Below are positions 124-43,560 of a DNA stretch of 48,519 nt, piece by piece (positions within the stretch are counted from its first letter, which is position 1; each line of letters opens with the position of its first letter). The position numbers and the translations under genes are program-made. The notes under the pieces were generated by a model. It had not been told where the DNA came from. It saw only the letters and a list, made by a program, of their open reading frames with translations, and made no database searches. The stretch is from a virus, in IMG/VR virus record IMGVR_UViG_3300010397_000018, positions 1 through 48,519 of that record; one strand, written 5' to 3'.

Positions 124-191
124 AGCCACGCCTCTGCGCCCGAAAGGGTCGGGGCTGTGATAGGATCATCCTGGGGCTGTCTCGCGCTCAT
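1..191 (-). CDS. 5' part of the junction-spanning HNH/zinc-ribbon gene (continues at 48396 after circular wrap; same gene as 48195..48519)
   Basis: Minus-strand reading from ATG 191..189 gives MSARQPQDDPITAPTLSGAEAWLDPFWDGDSWDAVNIEHGLATIIL... It is open and in frame with ORF 48195..48485 through the repeat. The ATG overlaps (ATGA) the stop of a 13-codon mini-ORF. Confidence 0.6.
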   Translation of the reverse strand, partial: MSARQPQDDPITAPTLSGAEAWLDPFWDGDSWDAVNIEHGLATIILALRSLPYPEYLRTNHWA

Positions 192-225
192 TGCATTTCT
201 TCGGCAGGTTTACGGCTGGGGCGGT

Positions 226-963
226 TCATGGTTCGGTGTGTAAAATTCTCCATGCGAGCGCAGCCACTCTTGGAATTTGTCCATTCCCAATGGCGCTGAT
301 GCGGTCCACGTAGTTGGCCACCCCATTACTTCCTCTGCAAAGTCCGGATGCGTGTATTGAGGATCGGTTTCGCATAGCCTCAATCCCTCTGACATCTTCG
401 CCCCACGGAAATGGGGTGAACCGCGAAAGCGCGGCTTCGACGCCCCCTTGAACTCGTTTTTCCCAATGGTTGGCAGCGAGTATCCATAGCCTTTCACGCT
501 GGTGTCGTGCGCCAACATCTCCGCCTGAAAACACTCCCCATCTAGCATCATACCCCATTTCGGCCAAGTCCCACAAAACACGCCACAGCCCTCGGGAGGT
601 GAGTCGTGGGGAGTTTTCCACAAAAACAAATCGTGGCTGAACTTCGCGAACGATTCTGGCCTGTTCTCTCCATAGTGCGCTCCTGGGGTCCGATAGTCCG
701 GATGCGAAGGGATTTGCCTGGCTGATTCCTTGGCACGGAAATCCGCCGGCGACGACATCGACATGCCCGCGCCACGGCTTGCCGTCGAAGGTGGTAACAT
801 CATCCCAAATGGGAAACTTTGGGAGGATGCCGTCTCGTTGCCGCTGCAAGAGCACTTTTCGGCAGTAGGGTTCAATTTCCACAGCACAGACGCAGGTATG
901 TCCGAGAAGCATTCCGCCGAGGATTCCTCCCCCTGCTCCTGCAAAAAGGTGTAGCTCACGCAT
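226..963 (-). CDS. DNA (cytosine-5) methyltransferase, short target-recognition domain
   Basis: Motif I LFAGAGGG, motif IV GGFPCQ, motif VI FVFVENSP, motif VIII QRERLWILA, motif X GNGQIPRVA. AAGGAG lies 5-6 nt upstream of the ATG. Confidence 0.92.
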   Translation of the reverse strand: MRELHLFAGAGGGILGGMLLGHTCVCAVEIEPYCRKVLLQRQRDGILPKFPIWDDVTTFDGKPWRGHVDVVAGGFPCQGISQANPFASGLSDPRSALWREQARIVREVQPRFVFVENSPRLTSRGLWRVLWDLAEMGYDARWGVFSGGDVGARHQRERLWILAANHWEKRVQGGVEAALSRFTPFPWGEDVRGIEAMRNRSSIHASGLCRGSNGVANYVDRISAIGNGQIPRVAALAWRILHTEP

Positions 964-984
964 GCGCTCCTTTCATGTTTCGGT

Positions 985-1036
985 GTAAAAGAAAGCCCGC
1001 CGCGTTCTGGTCTTGCACTCCAGAGCCGCGACGGGC
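985..1036 (-). terminator. Possible intrinsic terminator (hairpin plus U-tract on the minus-strand RNA)
   Basis: Minus RNA GCCCGUCGCG...CGCGGCGGGC (995..1004 pairs with 1027..1036; the G.U pair forms only on the minus strand), followed by UUUCUUUUAC. It conflicts with an open 50-codon ORF (973..1125) covering the same stretch. Confidence 0.35.
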
Positions 1037-1141
1037 GAATCGAAATTTAAATGCATCGGTGCAAGCGATGTGTCGCACGGCCAAAAGCCACTGCTGGCGA
1101 CCCTGTGAAAATAGGCAAAGATCATGGTTCGGTCAAGCACA

Positions 1142-1768
1142 TCATGCTTCGGGGCTGTCGATTTTTGCGGGGTGGGTGGAGGCGTCGATGGCTTGGTTCA
1201 GCCGCTCCCGGTCCTTCCGCATCTCCGCCGCCTCTTTCTCCAGTTCGGCGATGCGGGCGCGGGCATCGGAGAGTTCACCTTTAAGGCGTTGCACGTGCCC
1301 GCTGACATTCTGGTATGCGGCCTCTTTATCGTCCACTTCTCTGCAAAGCTTGTGGACCTCATTTTCCAGATCGTCGCGTTGTTGAATGACCGGCACCCGT
1401 TGGCGGGTGACTTTTTCGGCGCGATCGCATAAACCACGAATCTCGTTCGCCATCGCACTATCGTTTCCAGTGAGCGCAGCTTTGATGCGCTGGAACTCGT
1501 CAATGTTCAGATCGAGATTGTCCGTAAGATGATCCACCTCCGCCAACAGCCCGAGGATGGTCTGTGGGTCGGCGGCGGCGATGTAGGAGGCGTCTTTTTG
1601 TGCCTGTTGTTCTGCGGGCTCTCCGGGTTCGCTGGTTTCGTCTTCTCCGATGGCGCAAGCCGGGCCAGTGGCGCGCCATTCGTCGCCATCGGTTTCAAGC
1701 CAAACGCCACTTGACCATTGTTTGCTCGCCCCTTCCGCCAGCCGCTTGAGTTCGGAGGGAGGGGTCAT
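1142..1768 (-). CDS. Hypothetical coiled-coil protein (possibly ead/Ea22-like)
   Basis: 208-aa ORF; the ATG overlaps the upstream stop (ATGA). Acidic N-terminal half, heptad-like C-terminal half. AADPQTILGLLAEV resembles the Ea22-like N-terminal motif, from memory only. Confidence 0.55.
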   Translation of the reverse strand: MTPPSELKRLAEGASKQWSSGVWLETDGDEWRATGPACAIGEDETSEPGEPAEQQAQKDASYIAAADPQTILGLLAEVDHLTDNLDLNIDEFQRIKAALTGNDSAMANEIRGLCDRAEKVTRQRVPVIQQRDDLENEVHKLCREVDDKEAAYQNVSGHVQRLKGELSDARARIAELEKEAAEMRKDRERLNQAIDASTHPAKIDSPEA

Positions 1769-7881: not shown

Positions 7882-8112
7882 TTACTCAGAAAAAGGATTG
7901 CTGGGCGTCCGTGGATTGGGACGGCTGGCCAGCGCAGCCGCCAATGAGACGCCAGCGGAATGCACACCGCTGACTCGGCGCGGCGAACCACGCCTCCCCG
8001 TGCTCTCACGGCTTACAAATTTGCGAAGGAATCGACCAATCCGCTCCGCCGCGATCCCGCCCGCGAACGAGCCCGCAGCGACGATCCAGACGATTGGCTC
8101 GGGGTAGGTCAT
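7882..8112 (-). CDS. Hypothetical small protein with an N-terminal hydrophobic helix
   Basis: ATGA overlap with the stop of 8109..8576; PIVWIVAAGSFAGGIAA segment. Confidence 0.45.
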   Translation of the reverse strand: MTYPEPIVWIVAAGSFAGGIAAERIGRFLRKFVSRESTGRRGSPRRVSGVHSAGVSLAAALASRPNPRTPSNPFSE

Positions 8113-8576
8113 GGGGCGGTAGCGGCCTCCTGGTGGAGTGGAAGCACCCGCTTGGCGGCAGCCTCAATTTCGGACTCTGGGACTTCGAAATAGTTCGCCA
8201 GTCGGAGCGCATGATCTGCGCGGAGCCGAGGAAGCCCAGCCTCGTAATCGTTAATGTCAGAAGCGGAGATGCCGACCGCTTCTGAAAAGTCTTTCAGCTT
8301 CATCAGATTTTCCGCGCGATGCTCGCGGATCATTTGAGAAAGCGCATTGAGGCCAAGCGGCTTCCCCTCAAGCTGGGCAAGAAGCAGGTAACCCAGCGCG
8401 CCCTCCGACGCACGACGCACGCCGACGCGCCGCCGAATCTTCTCCAGTTGCTCCTTGTAGTGGGCCACGCACTTCCCAGCAAAAAACAGAGGTTCAGAGC
8501 AGGCGCCGCAAAGGCCCTGGTTCACATGCTGGATTTGAAAGAGCCGCTGACGGGAGACAGTTTGAGAATCGGGCAT
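8109..8576 (-). CDS. XRE-family helix-turn-helix transcriptional regulator with an N-terminal Cys-rich region
   Basis: LMKLKDFSEAVGISASDINDYEAGLPRLRADHALRLANYF is a typical HTH_3/XRE domain; N-terminal CGAC...C..H. Confidence 0.75.
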   Translation of the reverse strand: MPDSQTVSRQRLFQIQHVNQGLCGACSEPLFFAGKCVAHYKEQLEKIRRRVGVRRASEGALGYLLLAQLEGKPLGLNALSQMIREHRAENLMKLKDFSEAVGISASDINDYEAGLPRLRADHALRLANYFEVPESEIEAAAKRVLPLHQEAATAP

Positions 8577-11950: not shown

Positions 11951-13066
11951 ATGCCTGAGAAAAAGACCGTTCGTTTCGGGCCGATTTTCTTCGAGGTCCA
12001 GAGGTATGCTGACGGTAGATTTGGCTTCGATTACAAGAATCCAGACAACGACCGGATAAAGGTCCGCCTCCACAGCCAGGATGAAGCATGCGAGCGCGCC
12101 TTGGAGATTCTGAAGGCGGCCAGGGGTGGCACGCTGGACCGGAGCCTAATCGACGATGATCTGTTTTTATCCTTCCTTCGGTGGCGCTCCGAGCAGGCTT
12201 TGGGCGCTGAGATTCCGAAGGTGAAAAAGGAATACATGGACATCAAAAAGCGGGCCGGGCTGGCGCCCCCAACCATCTCGGAGCTTGAAAGCACCCTCCG
12301 GCCGTTTGCGGAACGATTCACGGGCAATATCGCCCACGTAAAACGCGAGCAGGTGGCCGCCTTTTTGGATGAGCGCTCCCCTTCCCCGCGCCGATGGAAT
12401 AACATGCGCAACGCAATCGTCGGGATGTGGCGCTTTGCCCGGCGTGAGGGATACCTGCCAGCGACCCTGACGAGCGTTGAAACCATGGAACTGCGCAAGG
12501 TTTCGCTTACAGTTCACACCTACAGCAAGGAAGAGCTTTTGCGGCTCTTGGCGGTCGTGGAAAAGGAGTGGTTGCCGCTCATTGTCCTAGGTGCCTTCTG
12601 CGGGCTCAGGCCCGAGGAGATTCAGCCGAACCCCCGACACAAGGGCTACAAGCCCGGGCTTCAGTGGCAGAATATAAACTGGAACAAGGGCATCGTGGAT
12701 GTTCCGGCCGGCGTTGCAAAGGATCGGCGCCGCAGATTTGCCCCGCTAACAGATGCCGCGCGCGCGTTTCTGTCCGATTGGAAATCGGAGAAAGGATTCG
12801 TCGTGCCAGCTCGGGCAACCGACAAGCCGCGCGCCCGATGGGTAAAGGATTCCGGGGTTACGTGGCGAAAGGACGCCCTCCGGCACAGCTTCGCGAGCTA
12901 TCGTCTGGCAGTTCGCAAAAACATGCCGGAGCTGACGCTGGAGATGGGCAATTCCGCCGCGATGGTTCATCGTCACTACTTGGACCTAAAGCACGAAGAA
13001 GACGGGGTATCATGGTTCGGTATCCGACCCGAAGAAGTTCCAAAAGTTCCACTGCCTCCCCTCTAA
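11951..13066 (+). CDS. int: Tyrosine recombinase / phage integrase
   Basis: Catalytic signature FCGLRPEE (Arg I), ALRHSFASY (H-x-x-R), MVHRHYLD (Tyr). The ORF opens with TTG at 11942; ATG 11951 (MPEKKT) is preferred. Confidence 0.88.
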   Translation: MPEKKTVRFGPIFFEVQRYADGRFGFDYKNPDNDRIKVRLHSQDEACERALEILKAARGGTLDRSLIDDDLFLSFLRWRSEQALGAEIPKVKKEYMDIKKRAGLAPPTISELESTLRPFAERFTGNIAHVKREQVAAFLDERSPSPRRWNNMRNAIVGMWRFARREGYLPATLTSVETMELRKVSLTVHTYSKEELLRLLAVVEKEWLPLIVLGAFCGLRPEEIQPNPRHKGYKPGLQWQNINWNKGIVDVPAGVAKDRRRRFAPLTDAARAFLSDWKSEKGFVVPARATDKPRARWVKDSGVTWRKDALRHSFASYRLAVRKNMPELTLEMGNSAAMVHRHYLDLKHEEDGVSWFGIRPEEVPKVPLPPL

Positions 13067-27843: not shown

Positions 27844-28434
27844 TTATTGGGTTGCTGGTTGAGATTTCTTGGCCGCGCGCGCGGCAGCCATCCGGACGCC
27901 TGCGGCGGCCCGACGTTCCGGCGTCCATCCCGAGGAGCGCGCCTTCTGCTCCGGCATCTGCTCGTGCTCGGTCGGCGTTCGGACGATTTCCTGCTCGCTG
28001 ATGGTGAGTTCTTCGATCTGGCGGCTGGCGTACTGGTCGGCCATGTTTCGGGCTTTCAGTTGCTCGTCGTTGAGCAGCTTCTCGCGCCGGCACATTTCGG
28101 TGCTGTCCTGCGATTCCATCTGCGTCTTCTTCTCCACGTCTGCGATTGGGCAGATGAGCTGGCGAACCACGGCGCCGCTGGGCAGCGTGACATCGTTCGG
28201 CTTGCCGTCCCGGTCGTGAAACTCGTCCCACTTCAGGCGGTGCTGGCCGTGCTGGCCAAAGGCGATGCCGTTATTAACGGCCTGCCCCAGGTGCGGGAAG
28301 TGCGAGCCGCTGCTTCCGCCCACGGCGGCGAACATCACGCCATACCGTTTGGTGTCGGTGTCGGAGTGGGGTGCGAACATCCCGTGCGCGGTTTGCGCTC
28401 GGGGAGCTACATCGGTAATGAGATGCGAGGGCAT
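27844..28434 (-). CDS. Head-assembly protein with a charged coiled-coil C-terminal half (196 aa)
   Basis: ATG 28434 preceded by CACCGAAAC (the ORF track opens at TTG 28446); C-terminal EKLLNDEQLKARNMADQYASRQIEELTISEQE. Confidence 0.4.
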   Translation of the reverse strand: MPSHLITDVAPRAQTAHGMFAPHSDTDTKRYGVMFAAVGGSSGSHFPHLGQAVNNGIAFGQHGQHRLKWDEFHDRDGKPNDVTLPSGAVVRQLICPIADVEKKTQMESQDSTEMCRREKLLNDEQLKARNMADQYASRQIEELTISEQEIVRTPTEHEQMPEQKARSSGWTPERRAAAGVRMAAARAAKKSQPATQ

Positions 28435-29891: not shown

Positions 29892-32281
29892 GCGGCGGCT
29901 CCCTCTGGCGCTTGTTGCTGTTGCATAAATTGGCCGTGACCCTGCGGGGGCTGCTTTCCTTTCGCTGGGGGTGCAGAGCGTGGCGGATTGAGGGCCTGTT
30001 GCTGCGCAAGCTGCTGCTGAAATTGCATGGCCTGCTGCTGCGCGAAAAGTTGCTGTTGCTGCATGAGGCGCTGGTAAAGCAGGGGGATGTAGGTCGGATA
30101 CTGCTGAGCCCAATACGGATCTTGCAGCGCGGCCTCGAAAGCGCCGATGAACACCTCGTGCGGATCGCTCGGAAGGGCCGGGTCAGGAATGCCGTAGGCG
30201 AGGATCTTGTTGATGATGTTCAACGCCTTCGCCTGCGCGATACGCATCCCGTTGTCGGGCACCTTGGCGTCAATGCCCGCGAGCTTGAAATACTGGTTCC
30301 AGAGATCGGCGCGGATCGGCGCGAGCGTTGGGTCCATGGCGCTGGTTTGCAGGAGCGTCAAAAGCCCCTGCGCCATCGCCATCTTTTTCAGGAACTCTTT
30401 CGCAACGGCGGTGAAGATGCGGCAGGCTCCAAAGTAGGTGCGGCCGGTCAGTCGCATCACGTAATCGCGATCCCCGAAATGCTCGGTGTTCCACTGGATG
30501 AGCCGCGCGTATCCGCCTGAAATGTGGTGGTTGAAACGATCCACCATGATCACGAGCGGATTTTTCGCGGCATCGGTGGCCTCCCCGACTTCCAGCGCGG
30601 AGCGCCGCCCCTGCGCCAGTTCGCCGAGAAGCGTGTCTGTGGCGCCAAAGATGGATTGGATCTTCGCGTCGCAGCGGTCGATGTAGGGAATCAGCGTGAC
30701 CGAATCGTCGTAGCTACTCTGCTCGCACCGCTGGGCCTCGCGTGGGTCGGTCTCCCACGGGATCTTTACGCCGGCCGCGTTGAAGTTCTGCACCTTGTAG
30801 GCCGGGCTGTCGATCTGCACCTTCCACCCACGATTGATAGTTTGCTCCTTCGACTGCTCAAATTGGCATTCCGCCCGGGTAACCTGCTCGCACGCCAAGA
30901 GCATGATCTCGCTCTTACTCATCGGAATTGTCGCCGCGTCGTCCTCCACGAGATCCGCGCCGAAGAGGATCGGGATCGGCATTCCTTCCGGCATCTCCTG
31001 AATGCGGAGACACGTGGTTTGCAGCGTCAGGTCGCCGTAGAGATTGACGACGTAGCGCTTCTGCGGCGGGTGAACCTTTCCAGTGCCCTGGCACGTCGGG
31101 CAAGAAACTGGCCCGCTCGATACGCTGCTTCCATCGGGAGCCGTGGTGGCCGGTGGCGTGATTTGCCGCTGCCCCATGCATTGCGGACACTGGACGCCTT
31201 CTCCGGTGTCGAGATTTCCCTGCTCGTCGATGGCGAGCAAGGGATACATCGTCCACCGCTTGTGCGCCCGATCCCGGTTGAGGCCGCCGCCCACTTGGTC
31301 ATTCAGGTTGTAGCGCAGGCGCAGCCGGTCGCGCATTGGCTGCATGTCCACGTCGTTCAGACAAAAGTGGCCCTTGTCCGTTGTGATCGCGAGATCCACG
31401 TTGAGGTAGCCGAATGGGTTGGATTTCGCGTCGTAGCGGTTGCCGTCCAGGTCTGCGTTGGTGACGAACTCGCGCACCATCGGGCATGGCTGCGATTCAA
31501 TCGGGAACATCCGCACGAACGGATCGATCATGATGTCGTCGTAGTGCAGCGGGTTAAACGCTGTGGTGAGCTGCTGGCGCGTCTCGTGGAAGGCGATTCC
31601 TGGCCCCTGCGGCGTTTGCGCGATCTGCGGCTGCATGTCTTGGTGCTGGGCCAAGAGTTGCGCTAGCTCCATCTGGCTCCGAACGGGGACGGGCGGATGG
31701 ACGTAATCCACGTACCGCAATTCGAACGGGCAATGGACGGCGTTGTAGCCGTACTTCGCGAAGCACCCGAACGCCTGGCGGTGCTTGTCTCGAAAGCCGA
31801 CCTTCTCGCAATTCTGCCGGATGATGGAGTTGAGGGCCTTCGCCGATTGCGCCGTGGGCTGATAAAAAAACTCTTCATCCACATCCTCGGGGACCTCGGC
31901 GCGCATCGGCAGCCCGTCCTCGAAGCTCAGAATCTCGCCGATGTCCGTCACGGCTTTGATCTGCTTGAAGGGCATCACGGACTGCCCCTTGGCGCTTTGG
32001 CCGTCCTGCGGAATAGGTGTGGTGGCTTTTTGGGACGCCTGCGTTACCGCCGTGGTGTTGATGTCCGCGACCGAACTGCGGACACGCCACGCGTAATCAA
32101 TGCGGCGATTGGCATTCCAGAAACGCTGCTGCATCAGCTCGTACGGCCACCAGTATTCTTGCGATAGATACTGCGTGACCGCTTTGCACAGCTTCTCGTT
32201 CCCGGCCAAATTCGGGCCGATGATGGGCGGATGCTCATCGATGGCCGAGCTTGTTTCGTTTCCAGTCCATGGAGAAATCAT
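29888..32281 (-). CDS. Portal protein (797 aa) with an internal zinc-finger insertion and a Q-rich tail
   Basis: Largest head-module gene, between TerL and the scaffold. The call rests on size and synteny. Contains CPQCMGQR...CPTCQGTGK and a C-terminal QQRLMQQQQLFAQQQAMQFQQQLAQQQ. Confidence 0.6.
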   Translation of the reverse strand: MISPWTGNETSSAIDEHPPIIGPNLAGNEKLCKAVTQYLSQEYWWPYELMQQRFWNANRRIDYAWRVRSSVADINTTAVTQASQKATTPIPQDGQSAKGQSVMPFKQIKAVTDIGEILSFEDGLPMRAEVPEDVDEEFFYQPTAQSAKALNSIIRQNCEKVGFRDKHRQAFGCFAKYGYNAVHCPFELRYVDYVHPPVPVRSQMELAQLLAQHQDMQPQIAQTPQGPGIAFHETRQQLTTAFNPLHYDDIMIDPFVRMFPIESQPCPMVREFVTNADLDGNRYDAKSNPFGYLNVDLAITTDKGHFCLNDVDMQPMRDRLRLRYNLNDQVGGGLNRDRAHKRWTMYPLLAIDEQGNLDTGEGVQCPQCMGQRQITPPATTAPDGSSVSSGPVSCPTCQGTGKVHPPQKRYVVNLYGDLTLQTTCLRIQEMPEGMPIPILFGADLVEDDAATIPMSKSEIMLLACEQVTRAECQFEQSKEQTINRGWKVQIDSPAYKVQNFNAAGVKIPWETDPREAQRCEQSSYDDSVTLIPYIDRCDAKIQSIFGATDTLLGELAQGRRSALEVGEATDAAKNPLVIMVDRFNHHISGGYARLIQWNTEHFGDRDYVMRLTGRTYFGACRIFTAVAKEFLKKMAMAQGLLTLLQTSAMDPTLAPIRADLWNQYFKLAGIDAKVPDNGMRIAQAKALNIINKILAYGIPDPALPSDPHEVFIGAFEAALQDPYWAQQYPTYIPLLYQRLMQQQQLFAQQQAMQFQQQLAQQQALNPPRSAPPAKGKQPPQGHGQFMQQQQAPEGAAA

Positions 32282-32318
32282 GCTTCGGTATCGCTACTAA
32301 ACCCGTTGAGCTGGAGTG

Positions 32319-33017
32319 TCAATGCCATTCATGGCCATGTTTCGGAAGATCCGCGTGCAGCGCCACCGTGTAAGTGTCGATTCCAACCTTGAGTCCGCAC
32401 TCGCGCGCCAGCTTGCAGACGCCGTACCAGCCAGTGAACGCGGGGTGATCAGGAACGCCAGCCATGGAGAAGATGTCAGCCGGCGCGAGGAACATCATGC
32501 CCACCACGTCCATCTCCACAAAGCGCTCCTGTTGGGGCAGCGGATGGCCGTCGAAGTCATGCCAGTAGGGCGCGTCATGCTTCAGGTTCCGGCCAGCGAT
32601 GTTACCCGGCGTGTTGGGCGCCACACCGTCGGTGCCCTTCTGGATGCACGCGGCGGTGTCGTAGAGCCGCGGCGTGCCTTCGATGAGCGGCAGCGGCGCG
32701 GTGATCCCCGTGGGGTTCACGCTCAGCAGGCGGCTGCACACGTCGGCTGGGTAATCGATCACGTCGGCGTCCACCCAGAGAACGAAGTCCCACTGTCCCA
32801 GGTCCACGGCGCGCACGCACCGGTCCGCCACGCGGCAAAGGCGGCTCCATGGGCTCGCCTCGTTCGGCAGGCTCTCGCCCTCGCGGAAGTCCAGCCAGAG
32901 CCCAAACTCGTGCTCTTTATCCGAGGCAATCGCGCGGTGCGCAAGCCCCATGGCTCGGCATTGGAGCGCGTAGTTTAGCTTCCGATGTATCGGCGAACAG
33001 ATGAGGATTCTTGCCAT
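32319..33017 (-). CDS. GT-A fold glycosyltransferase (DxD)
   Basis: ILICSPIH N-terminal strand, FVLWVDADVIDYP DxD motif, MDVVGMMFLAP; start trimmed to MARILIC (ATG 33017, overlapping the upstream gene by 43 nt). Confidence 0.6.
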   Translation of the reverse strand: MARILICSPIHRKLNYALQCRAMGLAHRAIASDKEHEFGLWLDFREGESLPNEASPWSRLCRVADRCVRAVDLGQWDFVLWVDADVIDYPADVCSRLLSVNPTGITAPLPLIEGTPRLYDTAACIQKGTDGVAPNTPGNIAGRNLKHDAPYWHDFDGHPLPQQERFVEMDVVGMMFLAPADIFSMAGVPDHPAFTGWYGVCKLARECGLKVGIDTYTVALHADLPKHGHEWH

Positions 33018-38430: not shown

Positions 38431-38705
38431 TTGAGAAGTGCCGCTGCTCCCATCGCGCCAATGACGCCACCGATGCCGTTGGCGCGAGCGGTGATAGTGC
38501 GCCCAATAGCGTCCTGCTCAGTCGAATGCCGGACGCCGGTCATGGCCAGCGATCCATCGGCCCCAAGGTTCAGCGAATCGCAGTCGGCGTTGGTGACGAG
38601 CTTGGGCTTGCCGTTGGGGTAGAAGACCATGGTGTGCGCCGCGCAGCCGGAAAGCGTCAGCGCAAAGCCGAGAGCGAGGAGGAGAATTAGGAGTGCCAGT
38701 TTCAT
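38427..38705 (-). CDS. Lipoprotein with a C-terminal transmembrane segment (unimolecular-spanin-like)
   Basis: MKLALLILLLALGFALTLSGC lipobox (LSGC) plus a C-terminal glycine-zipper TM GIGGVIGAMGAAALLK; ATGA overlaps on both sides. Confidence 0.5.
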   Translation of the reverse strand: MKLALLILLLALGFALTLSGCAAHTMVFYPNGKPKLVTNADCDSLNLGADGSLAMTGVRHSTEQDAIGRTITARANGIGGVIGAMGAAALLK

Positions 38706-38998
38706 GGTTCGGAAATGTGCGCGGCAGCCCCGCCCAAGGAAACCGCCGCGCGGGGCGAGTGCCCGAAAGGCTTGCTCCCGCAAATCGTGATCAGGTTCGG
38801 CTCAATAGGAGACGGCGCCCCTGGAATCACGTACATCACGGATGGCTTTGGGCGCTTTGTTTCGGCCCAGATAAGGTCGAAAAGGTGCGCCATTGCTGCC
38901 TCCCGCCGCTCCTCATCCCTCAACGGCGTATCCAGCCCGCTCGGGCCGTAGTTTGGGCCAGCGGGGTTGAAGCGGCGGACTAGGGGATCGGTGGTCAT
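38702..38998 (-). CDS. Hypothetical protein (98 aa)
   Basis: ATG 38998 forms an ATGA overlap with the upstream stop. Confidence 0.5.
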   Translation of the reverse strand: MTTDPLVRRFNPAGPNYGPSGLDTPLRDEERREAAMAHLFDLIWAETKRPKPSVMYVIPGAPSPIEPNLITICGSKPFGHSPRAAVSLGGAAAHISEP

Positions 38999-39223: not shown

Positions 39224-39556
39224 TCACAGTGCGATGCGAGAAAGGATGTCGCGGAGGCGAGTAATGCAGCCTTCGTTGCCGCCCTGAATCTGGAGTAGCG
39301 CCTCAGCCAAAGGGCACTCCTGCGGGCGCGGTCCGTCCTTCCCGGTGCCTTGCGCGCCGGGGACGGGAATCAGGATGGGTTGCAATCGCTGCTCAAGCGC
39401 GGTCATGGCATTGTTGAGGTCGCTGGACTGCTGCGCCAGCGAGACGATCCGCTCGTCAATTTGTGAGCGTGGAAGCTGCGGCTCCGGTGCGTTGCTGATA
39501 TTCCGTGGTGCGAAGCTCGACTGAGCCGCCTGGTTGGATGCAGATGCCGTCATCAT
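39224..39556 (-). CDS. Hypothetical protein (110 aa)
   Basis: ORF with tandem ATG ATG, directly downstream of a sigma70-like promoter. Confidence 0.55.
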   Translation of the reverse strand: MMTASASNQAAQSSFAPRNISNAPEPQLPRSQIDERIVSLAQQSSDLNNAMTALEQRLQPILIPVPGAQGTGKDGPRPQECPLAEALLQIQGGNEGCITRLRDILSRIAL

Positions 39557-39562
39557 ATTTCG

Positions 39563-39591
39563 GTATTAGTCCTCGCCTACCCCGTTGTCAA
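39563..39591 (-). promoter_or_regulatory. Sigma70-like promoter, TTGACA-N17-TAATAC
   Basis: Minus strand: TTGACA (39591..39586), 17-nt spacer, TAATAC (39568..39563). The ATG at 39556 lies 7 nt after the -10 element, which predicts a leaderless or near-leaderless mRNA. Confidence 0.45.
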
Positions 39592-39600
39592 GGGTGGCGT

Positions 39601-39807
39601 TCATGGTTCGGAGGGTGCAGGAGGTGGGAAGTATTTCCCAAACTCCTCCGGCCTTACTCCGGGCGGCATTTCAAACCAAATATCCCGCGCTTCTGGCCCG
39701 AATTGACCAGCTCCAGTGCATTTGAATCCAGCCTGCTCCAGAAAGTGCTGAATCATGTCAGCATGCGAGCCGGGTTTTACAGTGAGGAAAACTTCCCGAT
39801 GGTTCAT
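39601..39807 (-). CDS. Hypothetical protein (68 aa)
   Basis: The ATG lies 7 nt downstream of the tRNA-Gly 3' end. Confidence 0.5.
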   Translation of the reverse strand: MNHREVFLTVKPGSHADMIQHFLEQAGFKCTGAGQFGPEARDIWFEMPPGVRPEEFGKYFPPPAPSEP

Positions 39808-40285: not shown

Positions 40286-40757
40286 ATGTAAATCATTCAT
40301 CGGGCCGGGCGCTACTCCGGCTAAGGTTCTCGGAAGTAACTCCGATGCCATCCTTGCTCTCAGTCTTCGCCAGCGTCGGACGTTTACAAGGCGCCTCGCT
40401 GGCCTCTGACTGAGCCGTATCAGCCAGTCGTGAGTCGGTAGCTACTCCGCCTCTCAACTGTGACCCTCGGACCCTTCCCCTTCGATGGGCGTGTCTGCTT
40501 TCCACGCCGCCGATGAAAATGAATCACCAGCGACAAGTGGTCGGAGTCGTTTCCAAATGTAGACTCCTGGGCATTCGCTGGTGAAGATGTGAAAGAACTG
40601 GAAATTGGTGCCGCAGCCTTTCGGGTTGCACGCCTACTCAGCCACGGCAAAGCACCTACGGTTGACCGTTGCTGATGACGGGCCGCACGTGCAGTGGCAT
40701 TCTCCCCAATCATGCTTCGGAGTCAATCAGATTTCGGAGGCTCGACCCTGAAACGCA

Positions 40758-40800
40758 CCGAACGGTAGTTGACCTTTAAGGGGCCAATGCTACCGTTCGG
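40758..40800. promoter_or_regulatory. 11-bp perfect inverted repeat abutting the start of the plus-strand operon
   Basis: CCGAACGGTAG (40758-40768) - 21 nt - CTACCGTTCGG (40790-40800); ATG 40803 follows 2 nt after the right arm. Confidence 0.55.
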
Positions 40801-40802
40801 GC

Positions 40803-41129
40803 ATGATTCGGACTAAGCAAACGAACCAAACCACGCGCCGCAGTTCGCGTCAAGCGGAAGCCATCAGGAAATGTATGCGTGAATGGCAATTCGCGACTGG
40901 CCACCTATCGGTTCTAAGCCAGCGCTATCGGCATCCGGCTTATCTGCGGTTGCTCGAATTTGGAAGCGCGGCGGTCCCAGTTATCCTGAAGCGCATGAAG
41001 CGCAATTTCGGATGGTGGTTTGATGCGCTACGTAGACTGACCGGAGAGGACCCAGCAAAAGGAGCGGAGTCATTCGATGATGGCAATAGATGCTGGCTTC
41101 GGTGGGGCAAAGAAAAGGGGCTGATTTAA
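40803..41129 (+). CDS. Hypothetical basic protein (108 aa)
   Basis: First gene of a three-gene plus-strand operon; TAATG overlap with the next gene. Confidence 0.55.
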   Translation: MIRTKQTNQTTRRSSRQAEAIRKCMREWQFATGHLSVLSQRYRHPAYLRLLEFGSAAVPVILKRMKRNFGWWFDALRRLTGEDPAKGAESFDDGNRCWLRWGKEKGLI

Positions 41130-42416: not shown

Positions 42417-42917
42417 CTAGCCAACTGCACATTCAGCCTCTCGTCTCATCCTCTCCTCCCAAGAAACTGGCTTAGCTCGATGCACTGCGCCATTCCACTT
42501 GGCGCCCTTCTGAAGATTCTCAGTTGCCCAAAGCGGCTGGAAGTTTGAGAAATGGAAGCACTCTTGGATTTGCGCCGGGTCGTTGAGATCGAACGATGCG
42601 CATGGGCGCTTATGGTCGGCGTGCCATTTGCCGTAGTTCTGCCATCTCATCCCTGGCAACCAAAGCGATTGCAGATGCTTCCTGAAGTCGTGAATGGAGC
42701 AGCCGATTAACGCTCTGAGCCTTTTGTGCTGTGAGTGGCCATGAGCCTTGATGGCTAGCGGGATCATGGCTCGCAAGCGCAGCACGTGGCGGAAATACGG
42801 ATCTTGGCGCTTCCTGAGCGCTCTGTAGTCGTGCTTGGGCTTCCTGGTTTCCGATGGTGCTGGCGCGAACGATTTCGCCCACTTCAGCGCATTCCCAAGT
42901 CGGTCATTTTCAGGCAT
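42417..42917 (-). CDS. HNH endonuclease
   Basis: GKWHADHKRPCASF ... NFQPLWATENLQKG (H-N-H core with the conserved N..K). Confidence 0.75.
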   Translation of the reverse strand: MPENDRLGNALKWAKSFAPAPSETRKPKHDYRALRKRQDPYFRHVLRLRAMIPLAIKAHGHSQHKRLRALIGCSIHDFRKHLQSLWLPGMRWQNYGKWHADHKRPCASFDLNDPAQIQECFHFSNFQPLWATENLQKGAKWNGAVHRAKPVSWEERMRREAECAVG

Positions 42918-43146
42918 GCGAAATCATACCCAAAATCATGTTTCGGACAAGCGTTTACCCCACGCTGCCGCGCTTCGCTTGGCGGGCTGTCCAGTCGCCA
43001 AAGAGTGCTTCGCAACTCGCTGCGCTCGCCCTGCGGGCCTTCGACTCTTCGCCAGCCTTTTGGACTCTCCACTGCACGCACTTCGTGCTCCTTTGGTTGT
43101 TGGTCTCGAATTGGTTTGGACTGAAGGGCGTACGCTTTGCGTACTG

Positions 43147-43560
43147 TCACCGAAGCAGCGCGCGCAGATCCGCCAGGCGCTTGCGAAGGTCCGGATCGTT
43201 GGCGCAGCGATGCTCTACGGCGCCGATGGCGTGGACAACCGTGCTGTGATCGCGCCAGCCGAAGGCGACGCCGATGTCTACCATCGAAAGCATCGTCAAT
43301 TCGTGCGCGAGCACCATGGCGATTTGCCGGGCCTCGGCCTGCTCACGCTTGCCGCGGCCCTTGGTCTTCATGGTCCGGAGCTCGACGCCAAACTCGTCCG
43401 CAACGGCCTTCTGGACGCGCCAGAGCCTCGCCAGCTCGCGATCCATCTGCGGCTTGGTCAAGAGAGCGCTCAGCCGGGCGTAGCCGCGCCGGCGAAGCTC
43501 TTGGAGTAGTTCGCGATCATCGCACTCCCCCAGGCACGCGGTTGGGGTTGGGGTGGTCAT
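43147..43560 (-). CDS. Stand-alone DnaA domain IV (DnaA-box-binding HTH) protein
   Basis: RQIAMVLAHELTMLSMVDIGVAFGWRDHSTVVHAIGAVEHRCANDPDLRKRLADL matches Bac_DnaA_C (aRqiAMyL.re.t..S...IG..FG.rDHsTV.ha); only 137 aa, with no AAA+ domain. Confidence 0.75.
   Translation of the reverse strand: MTTPTPTACLGECDDRELLQELRRRGYARLSALLTKPQMDRELARLWRVQKAVADEFGVELRTMKTKGRGKREQAEARQIAMVLAHELTMLSMVDIGVAFGWRDHSTVVHAIGAVEHRCANDPDLRKRLADLRALLR

Follow-up and report, generated by a model that had tools for sequence, protein, structure and literature searches.

A strand-specific motif at start codons and the short reading frames it opens in an uncultured phage genome

The window analysed here is the whole of IMG/VR record IMGVR_UViG_3300010397_000018, a stretch of 48,519 nucleotides (nt) that holds the complete genome of an uncultured phage (48,396 bp) plus a 123-bp terminal repeat. 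We were concerned with a gap of 178 nt between a coiled-coil Ead/Ea22-like gene (1142..1768) and a C5 cytosine methyltransferase gene (226..963), in which several very short open reading frames (ORFs), here called mini-ORFs, are linked stop to start, and with the strand-specific element W-CCGAAMC-ATG-A (W is A or T, M is A or C) that supplies their start codons. Unlike the motif, which occurs far above chance, the chain of mini-ORFs is not clearly above chance.

The gap and its mini-ORFs

Nearly all genes of the phage lie on the minus strand, the exceptions being two blocks, one for lysogeny at ~11.5-13.7 kb and a small one at 40.8-41.9 kb. Followed as it would be transcribed, a long early operon extends from ~11.2 kb through a sliding clamp, RusA and a PAPS-reductase-like gene to the gap, and continues downstream of it with the methyltransferase, the genome-junction-spanning gene and the replication genes (primase/helicase). 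Canonical Shine-Dalgarno (SD) sequences are scarce in the phage genome and the spacers between genes are A/C-rich; some Verrucomicrobia are reported to be SD-scarce (PMC10783764). The features of the gap are:

1142..1152, minus strand: motif copy with one mismatch (CCGAAGC-ATG-A), its own TGA being the stop of gene 1142..1768
1122..1145, minus strand: 7-codon frame (MMCLTEP) opened by ATG 1145, with its TGA at 1124-1122
1122..1132, minus strand: exact motif copy (CCGAACC-ATG-A), its TGA closing the 7-codon frame and its ATG 1125 opening the 50-codon frame
973..1125, minus strand: 50-codon frame from ATG 1125, its TGA overlapping ATG 976
987..1036, minus strand: intrinsic terminator inside the 50-codon frame, a 10+5 bp GC-rich hairpin (1036..995) followed by TTTCTTTT at 994..987
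973..983, minus strand: exact motif copy (CCGAAAC-ATG-A), 3 nt past the T tract of the terminator, its TGA closing the 50-codon frame
956..976, minus strand: 6-codon frame (MKGAHA) from ATG 976, its stop at 958-956 lying over methyltransferase codons 2-3
956..972, minus strand: start region of the methyltransferase, with AAGGAG at 972-967, a 3-nt spacer, ATG 963 and the mini-ORF TGA at 958-956
226..963, minus strand: C5 cytosine methyltransferase (Pfam DNA_methylase, 3.7e-28) from ATG 963

Each mini-ORF coordinate was checked by reading the minus strand directly. The gene at 1142..1768 terminates GAA GCA TGA, its stop being overlapped by ATG 1145, and the three ATGA links that the original prediction had drawn from this stop through ATG 1145, ATG 1125 and ATG 976 to the methyltransferase start are right at every coordinate. 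The hairpin it had placed at 995..1036 is also there, as is the CCGAA(A/C)C context of the mini-ORF starts, with the qualification that ATG 1145 has CCGAAGC, one mismatch away. The 6-codon frame and the methyltransferase start overlap by 8 nt (ATGCGTGA).

Further mini-ORFs, all of them anticipated by the same prediction, lie at other junctions:

188..236, minus strand: exact motif copy, formed by the last codons of the methyltransferase, and a 13-codon frame from ATG 229, which overlaps the methyltransferase stop
42910..42950, minus strand: exact motif copy (42946-42940) and a 9-codon frame from ATG 42939, with its stop over the HNH start ATG 42917
39553..39611, minus strand: exact motif copy and a 12-codon frame from ATG 39604, with its stop at 39568-39566
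32278..32345, minus strand: exact motif copy and a 13-codon frame from ATG 32338, with its stop at 32299-32297

The TGA of the frame from ATG 229 overlaps ATG 191 of the genome-junction-spanning gene, while one-mismatch copies of the motif abut the ATGs that follow the last two frames, ATG 39556 of the first late gene (9 nt beyond the mini-ORF stop) and ATG 32281 of a 797-amino acid (aa) portal candidate (15 nt beyond it). The stop/start geometry of translational coupling is present as ATGA at 1145, 1125, 976 and 191 and as ATGCSTGA at 963 and 42917. The methyltransferase has an initiation signal of its own, the AAGGAG 3 nt before its ATG, and the HNH gene has none. The methyltransferase (956-968) and HNH (42910-42922) starts have the 11-mer CGCATGC(G/C)TGA in common on the minus strand, a coincidence estimated at ~0.06 among all gene pairs. 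Between the HNH mini-ORF and an upstream gene for a DnaA_C-like protein there is also an uncalled ORF of 40 codons (42955-43077, minus strand) with AGGAG and a GTG start, its coding score being slightly positive.

The start motif

At ≤1 mismatch, CCGAAMCATGA has 27 matches in the genome, all on the minus (coding) strand, against 1.75 expected, and 0/100 shuffles reach 27. Exact CCGAAMC-ATG occurs 14 times on the minus strand and not at all on the other, and an ATG directly abuts 14 of the 25 coding-strand copies of CCGAAMC. The only robust flanks are A/T at -8 and an A right after the ATG, the latter in 18/29 copies (P 4e-6). Four exact copies start long genes (38705, 28434, 26294 and 19545), seven head short frames, two are in-frame internal Met codons and one is antisense in the integrase gene; one-mismatch copies abut 32281 (the portal candidate), 39556, 9198 and 40713. 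Of the 29 copies, 8-11 are found at long-ORF starts and nine at mini-ORF starts. Since the motif carries both an ATG and, in the preceding frame, an overlapping TGA, a copy can end the frame begun by its neighbour and begin another.

Several observations suggest that the motif ATGs are used as starts, the scarcity of SD sequences in the genome being one of them. At 32281 (797 aa), 19545, 39556 and 9198 the motif ATG is the first possible start of the gene (≤4 open codons upstream), at 28434 it is nearly so, and at 38705 and 26294 it is a plausible one. Local RNA folding is as weak at mini-ORF starts (-7.3 kcal/mol) as at real starts (-7.4 kcal/mol), the value for all ATGs being -12.0 kcal/mol. 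Furthermore, the mini-ORFs opened by intergenic motif copies have a stop that overlaps the next start in 5/8 cases (P 0.007, frame- and sequence-randomised controls) and that falls within -20..+8 nt of it in 7/8 (P 0.0009, nominal), as compared with 3/17 intergenic ATGs outside the motif with a stop near the next start. Intergenic ATGs are not depleted as a class (25 observed, 24 expected).

A T at +16, counted from the A of the ATG, is found in 10/14 exact copies and makes the sixth codon hydrophobic in both genes and mini-ORFs; it was rejected as a part of the motif because 0/15 one-mismatch copies have it. The antisense copy (13011-13020) lies in the 3' end of the plus-strand integrase gene, which means that the int mRNA holds a perfect complement of the motif. 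An antisense small RNA (c4-like) directed against the motif was considered and set aside: there is no complement at ≤1 mismatch on the coding strand, and folding the plus strand of the gap or of the int 3' region gave nothing better than shuffles.

Outside this phage the motif is rare. Taking Verrucomicrobiota as the host phylum, which is an assumption throughout, 401 genomes of 1-7 Mb have 0-59 copies each, or at most ~9.5 per Mb, against ~290 per Mb in the phage, and at this background density a host-wide start context was discarded as far as the sampled Verrucomicrobiota are concerned. Relatives at 40-49% identity, which are all that IMG/VR, JGI metagenomes and GTDB genomes gave, lack the motif, and there is none on the coding strand of 561 kb of other phage loci, distant relatives included; nor is it shared by 80 other methyltransferase-carrying phages. 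A scan of IMG/VR for the two-copy pattern returned tandem-repeat arrays only, and no phage with the same dispersed motif; these arrays, in unrelated phages (L236:1214-1296, L261, L219/L226/L247), some of 28-37% GC, have a 12-nt unit CACCGAAACATG or a 19-nt unit containing CCGAACCATG. No near homologues were found for the genes that flank the gap, while the terminase has homologues at 96, 74, 70 and 69% identity, all in Logan assemblies. The 98-aa protein at 38702..38998 has N- and C-terminal segments identical to those of a 76-aa protein in ENA (P0068), the motif-encoded HISEP tail among them, while the middle differs, which suggests a mosaic gene. HISEP is kept in one distant homologue, a hint of conservation at this one junction.

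Readings of the motif and of the gap

The terminator has a free energy (dG) of -28.7 kcal/mol (z -3.9), the lowest of all coding-strand candidates, and no Rfam family matches the gap at E<=1. Matches to the sigma-70 consensus, which we call promoter-like sites and which are not mapped promoters, number only six on the coding strand, and three of these embed a motif copy at a fixed register:

1136-1108, minus strand: TTGACC-17-TATTTT, with the motif copy of ATG 1125 in the -35/spacer and a predicted start at ~1101, downstream of ATG 1125
42950-42923, minus strand: TTGTCC-16-TATGAT, sharing letters with the motif copy of ATG 42939, with a predicted start on the HNH ATG
40726-40699, minus strand: TTGACT-16-GAGAAT, embedding a motif copy

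These sites give an alternative meaning to the letters of the two mini-ORFs headed by ATG 1125 and ATG 42939. A sequence TTGACA-17-TAATAC is also present within the 39604 mini-ORF (39563-39591, minus strand), pointing at ATG 39556. With TATGAT plus 5 nt leading to HNH ATG 42917 and TAATAC plus 6 nt to ATG 39556, the predicted transcription start falls on the start codon in both cases, which suggests that the HNH gene and the 39556 gene may have leaderless mRNAs. The motif itself was rejected as a -10-type promoter for such mRNAs, with nothing conserved upstream of -8 and a suitably spaced -10-like hexamer only at 39556, 19545 and the HNH gene.

We tentatively favour the reading that the motif is an SD-independent start element of the mRNA, and that its intergenic copies make short upstream ORFs with a single-step hand-over to the gene that follows. 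The 178-nt gap would then be a transcription boundary in the long leftward operon, consisting of the strongest intrinsic terminator of the coding strand and a promoter-like site, upstream of a methyltransferase that was probably acquired horizontally and has an SD sequence of its own. We infer that the three copies of W-CCGAAMC-AUG-A in the gap would each act in the mRNA as a ribosome start site that needs no SD sequence. With an AUG and, one base later in the preceding frame, a UGA, each intergenic copy would open a short frame and close that of the previous copy, so that the long relay would be a by-product of clustered copies. The functional step may be only the last one at each junction, that is, 976 to 963, 229 to 191, 42939 to 42917, 39604 to 39556 and 32338 to 32281, where a ribosome started by the motif would terminate over the real start or a few bases short of it and, as we infer, could reinitiate there. 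A single-step hand-over of this kind is plausible, and to this extent the systematic termination-reinitiation put forward by the original prediction survives in a weak local form: the motif ATGs look like genuine starts and the mini-ORF stops cluster at the next start.

A number of points weigh against a start element. The weak RNA structure at motif ATGs may merely reflect AT-richer intergenic DNA, and the windows for the stop positions were picked after seeing the data. GKTTCGG, the complement of the motif, is absent in 16/17 Verrucomicrobiota 16S sequences, whose 3' tails carry the canonical CCTCC; pairing of the motif with 16S rRNA was therefore rejected, the motif having no GGAG and the 16S no complement. 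Three near-copies have a mutated ATG (AAG, AGG and TTG), and the copies at 40804 and 40713 lie in a poorly coding stretch upstream of tRNAs. Finally, the three motif copies at a fixed register in promoter-like sites compare with 0.03 expected under local shuffling (0/3000 trials reach three), a coincidence that a pure mRNA start signal leaves unexplained.

In the stretch upstream of the tRNAs, the ORF behind one of the motif copies (40420..40713, minus strand) has a very poor coding score of -19.5, and a perfect 11-bp inverted repeat (CCGAACGGTAG/CTACCGTTCGG) has the 4-codon frame at 40804 as its 5' arm. Positions 40420-40860 on the minus strand may hold a structured non-coding RNA.

A serious rival, which we rate as less probable than the start element, is that the motif is a DNA element, either an operator/stoperator-like docking site for a phage regulator or a promoter-associated box for it. 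The mini-ORFs would then never be functionally relevant, and the motif would be found at gene junctions since its CATGA core fits the usual overlapping stop/start. Its asymmetry, its length of ~10-11 bp, its 14-29 copies and their uniform orientation with transcription in a temperate phage all agree with a DNA element, as do its absence from the other phage loci, its background density in the Verrucomicrobiota and the near-copies that have lost the ATG. The copies are found in short intergenic spaces as well as in promoter-like sites, where three have a fixed register (P<1/3000); the operators and stoperators of L5-type phages have been described likewise in promoters and intergenic spaces (PMC9283540). 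Candidate sequence-specific DNA binders with a helix-turn-helix (HTH) are encoded as well, a 155-aa HTH_3 protein (8109..8576, minus strand) and a 137-aa protein with the DnaA C-terminal HTH domain (43147..43560, minus strand; 1.8e-20), neither of which is tied to the motif. However, a DNA element would not be expected to have an ATG at zero spacing in more than half of the coding-strand CCGAAMC copies, to provide the first start codon of several long genes, or to place mini-ORF stops non-randomly relative to the next start.

A further reading is a relay designed as such. In its most specific form this would be a pyrBI-type attenuator: ribosomes leaving the gene at 1142..1768 would reinitiate at ATG 1145 and ATG 1125, translate through the hairpin and suppress termination, allowing transcription and ribosomes to reach the methyltransferase and the replication genes. 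The geometry of a leader attenuator is present in that a short ORF (973..1125), its translation being hypothetical, overlaps an intrinsic terminator upstream of the methyltransferase. Three consecutive ATGA links, a 50-codon frame that no stop interrupts across a GC-rich hairpin and that closes 10 nt ahead of the methyltransferase ATG, and the fact that every ATG in the gap falls in the frames of the chain also speak for design, and a terminator in the middle of an operon and upstream of replication genes calls for some mechanism of read-through.

The frequency of the chain depends on what is held fixed. When the gap was fully shuffled, a chain of any length to the methyltransferase start arose in 1.6% of trials and the three-link chain in 0.3%, a rarity that counts in favour of design. 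Where the TGA in methyltransferase codons 2-3 is fixed, it is reachable only after a multiple of three links. With the two exact motif blocks kept at random positions a chain was found in 3-4.5% of trials, and when the motif blocks stayed in place and only the sequence around them was shuffled, the three-link relay appeared in 21%. Since there are ~20 intergenic gaps in the genome where such a chain might have been noticed, even the unconditioned chain is only marginal, and given the motif it is unremarkable. Furthermore, neither coding potential nor conservation shows in the 50-codon frame, transcripts from the promoter-like site would begin only after ATG 1125 has been passed, and the methyltransferase comes with an AAGGAG of its own; we therefore regard a designed relay as unlikely. 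Our preferred reading is that the three-step relay results for the most part, as a side effect, from the clustering of three motif copies in a terminator-containing control region, and that it is incidental and not purpose-built.

The multi-step relay of the original prediction, which was to keep ribosomes on one long RNA, is not supported in view of the motif-fixed shuffles, the 50-codon link with neither coding signal nor homologue, the terminator inside that link and the promoter-like sites. A terminator followed by a restart promoter had been named as grounds for refuting the relay; both are now predicted at the gap and, at the level of prediction, partly bear this out.

A stronger version, which we judge somewhat less probable still, is that the chain works as an antiterminator driven by translation. 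If the host largely ignores SD sequences, ribosomes would pass from the last early gene by way of two motif-started mini-ORFs across the strongest terminator of the genome, and read-through into the methyltransferase and replication genes would need ongoing translation. The same device would gate the HNH gene, the portal and the first late genes.

The mini-ORF heads might also be scars of cassette insertion, a reading that is compatible with the others and to which, as a full account, we give little credence. The methyltransferase and the HNH gene would have recombined in at junction motifs, duplicating the motif ATG before foreign 5' sequence. The codon usage of the methyltransferase is indeed foreign (codon score -14; G+C content at third codon positions, GC3, 0.53), and imperfect 20-nt direct repeats TTTTACA(CA)CCGAAMCATGAA flank it at 971-990 and 224-243 on the minus strand. 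The conserved core of its family stops at WRIL, and here the tail HTEP*, its last four codons, is the phage motif. Homologous cassettes have the same ATGCGTGAGCTACAC start behind GGAGG (L058, L061) or a ATGAAAGG start ~14 nt upstream, the related cassettes with AAACATGAAAGG at this distance suggesting that ATG 976 is perhaps partly a vestige of a cassette start. The neighbouring genes, lacking near homologues in relatives, fit such an insertion too. Scars do not explain the copies at 39604 and 32338, which lie beside core late genes, nor do they explain the bias in mini-ORF stop positions.

The weakest reading takes the 50-codon frame (973..1125; 55 codons when read from GTG 1140) for the genuine gene of a small protein. 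It was already disfavoured and is very improbable: the ATG of the frame has a strong context and it is open for 50 codons, but its codon-usage score is neutral (0.8, an overlapping frame scoring 2.2), it is absent among the proteins called on the contig, where the methyltransferase is called with the same inferred start, it has no Pfam match, a HMMER scan of 1.84 billion representatives gave no credible homologue and matched repeat-derived junk proteins only, and a terminator lies inside it.

Comparison with known systems

If the motif is a start signal that acts without SD pairing, the phage would offer a compact natural system for initiation in SD-scarce bacteria (probably Verrucomicrobiota), and for how a gene is supplied with ribosomes by short ORFs ahead of it. 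If it is a DNA operator, stoperator-style silencing of a whole genome would extend beyond the actinobacteriophages. Either way, transcripts and ribosomes should be mapped before ATGA-linked mini-ORFs that are built by a repeated motif are annotated as genes or as a relay.

In pyrBI-type attenuators a leader ORF runs through a terminator, with its end close before the regulated gene. The gap resembles them in having a short ORF that extends across an intrinsic terminator and stops shortly before the methyltransferase; it differs in showing no sign of regulatory pausing or conservation, and in that the ORF starts upstream of the only promoter-like site. Translational coupling by overlapping stop and start codons (ATGA, TAATG), with termination followed by reinitiation, is established in bacterial and phage operons. 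Here too, ATGA or 8-nt overlaps link a frame to a following start that a terminating ribosome could reach. Whereas the known cases join two real genes, the upstream partners in this phage are frames of 6-50 codons with no coding signal, and one of the steps crosses an intrinsic terminator.

The L5-type operators and stoperators of Cluster A mycobacteriophages are asymmetric 13-mer sites, of which there are more than 20 across a temperate genome (PMC9283540). They share with the motif their location in promoters and short intergenic spaces, the promoters being consensus predictions in this phage, and an orientation that tracks transcription. The L5 sites have no fixed register to an ATG and their repressor is known, whereas the motif has a fixed ATG register and no repressor candidate was identified for it.

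The closest known kind is that of the Start-Associated Sequences (SAS) of Cluster K mycobacteriophages, which are functionally unsolved (Pope et al. 2011, PMC3203893; survey, PMC12699233). Both are short asymmetric repeats (about 10-20 copies for SAS) with nearly all copies in one orientation, both adjoin start codons, mostly ATG, with the stop of the upstream gene sometimes inside the repeat, and both are essentially absent from other phages and from the host genome, which for the phage studied here means its assumed host phylum. SAS have an AGGAG core 3-7 bp upstream of the start and are confined to non-structural genes. The motif, in contrast, has neither an SD core nor a 16S complement, stands at zero spacing to the ATG and is present in all modules of the genome, and half of its exact copies head mini-ORFs instead of genes.

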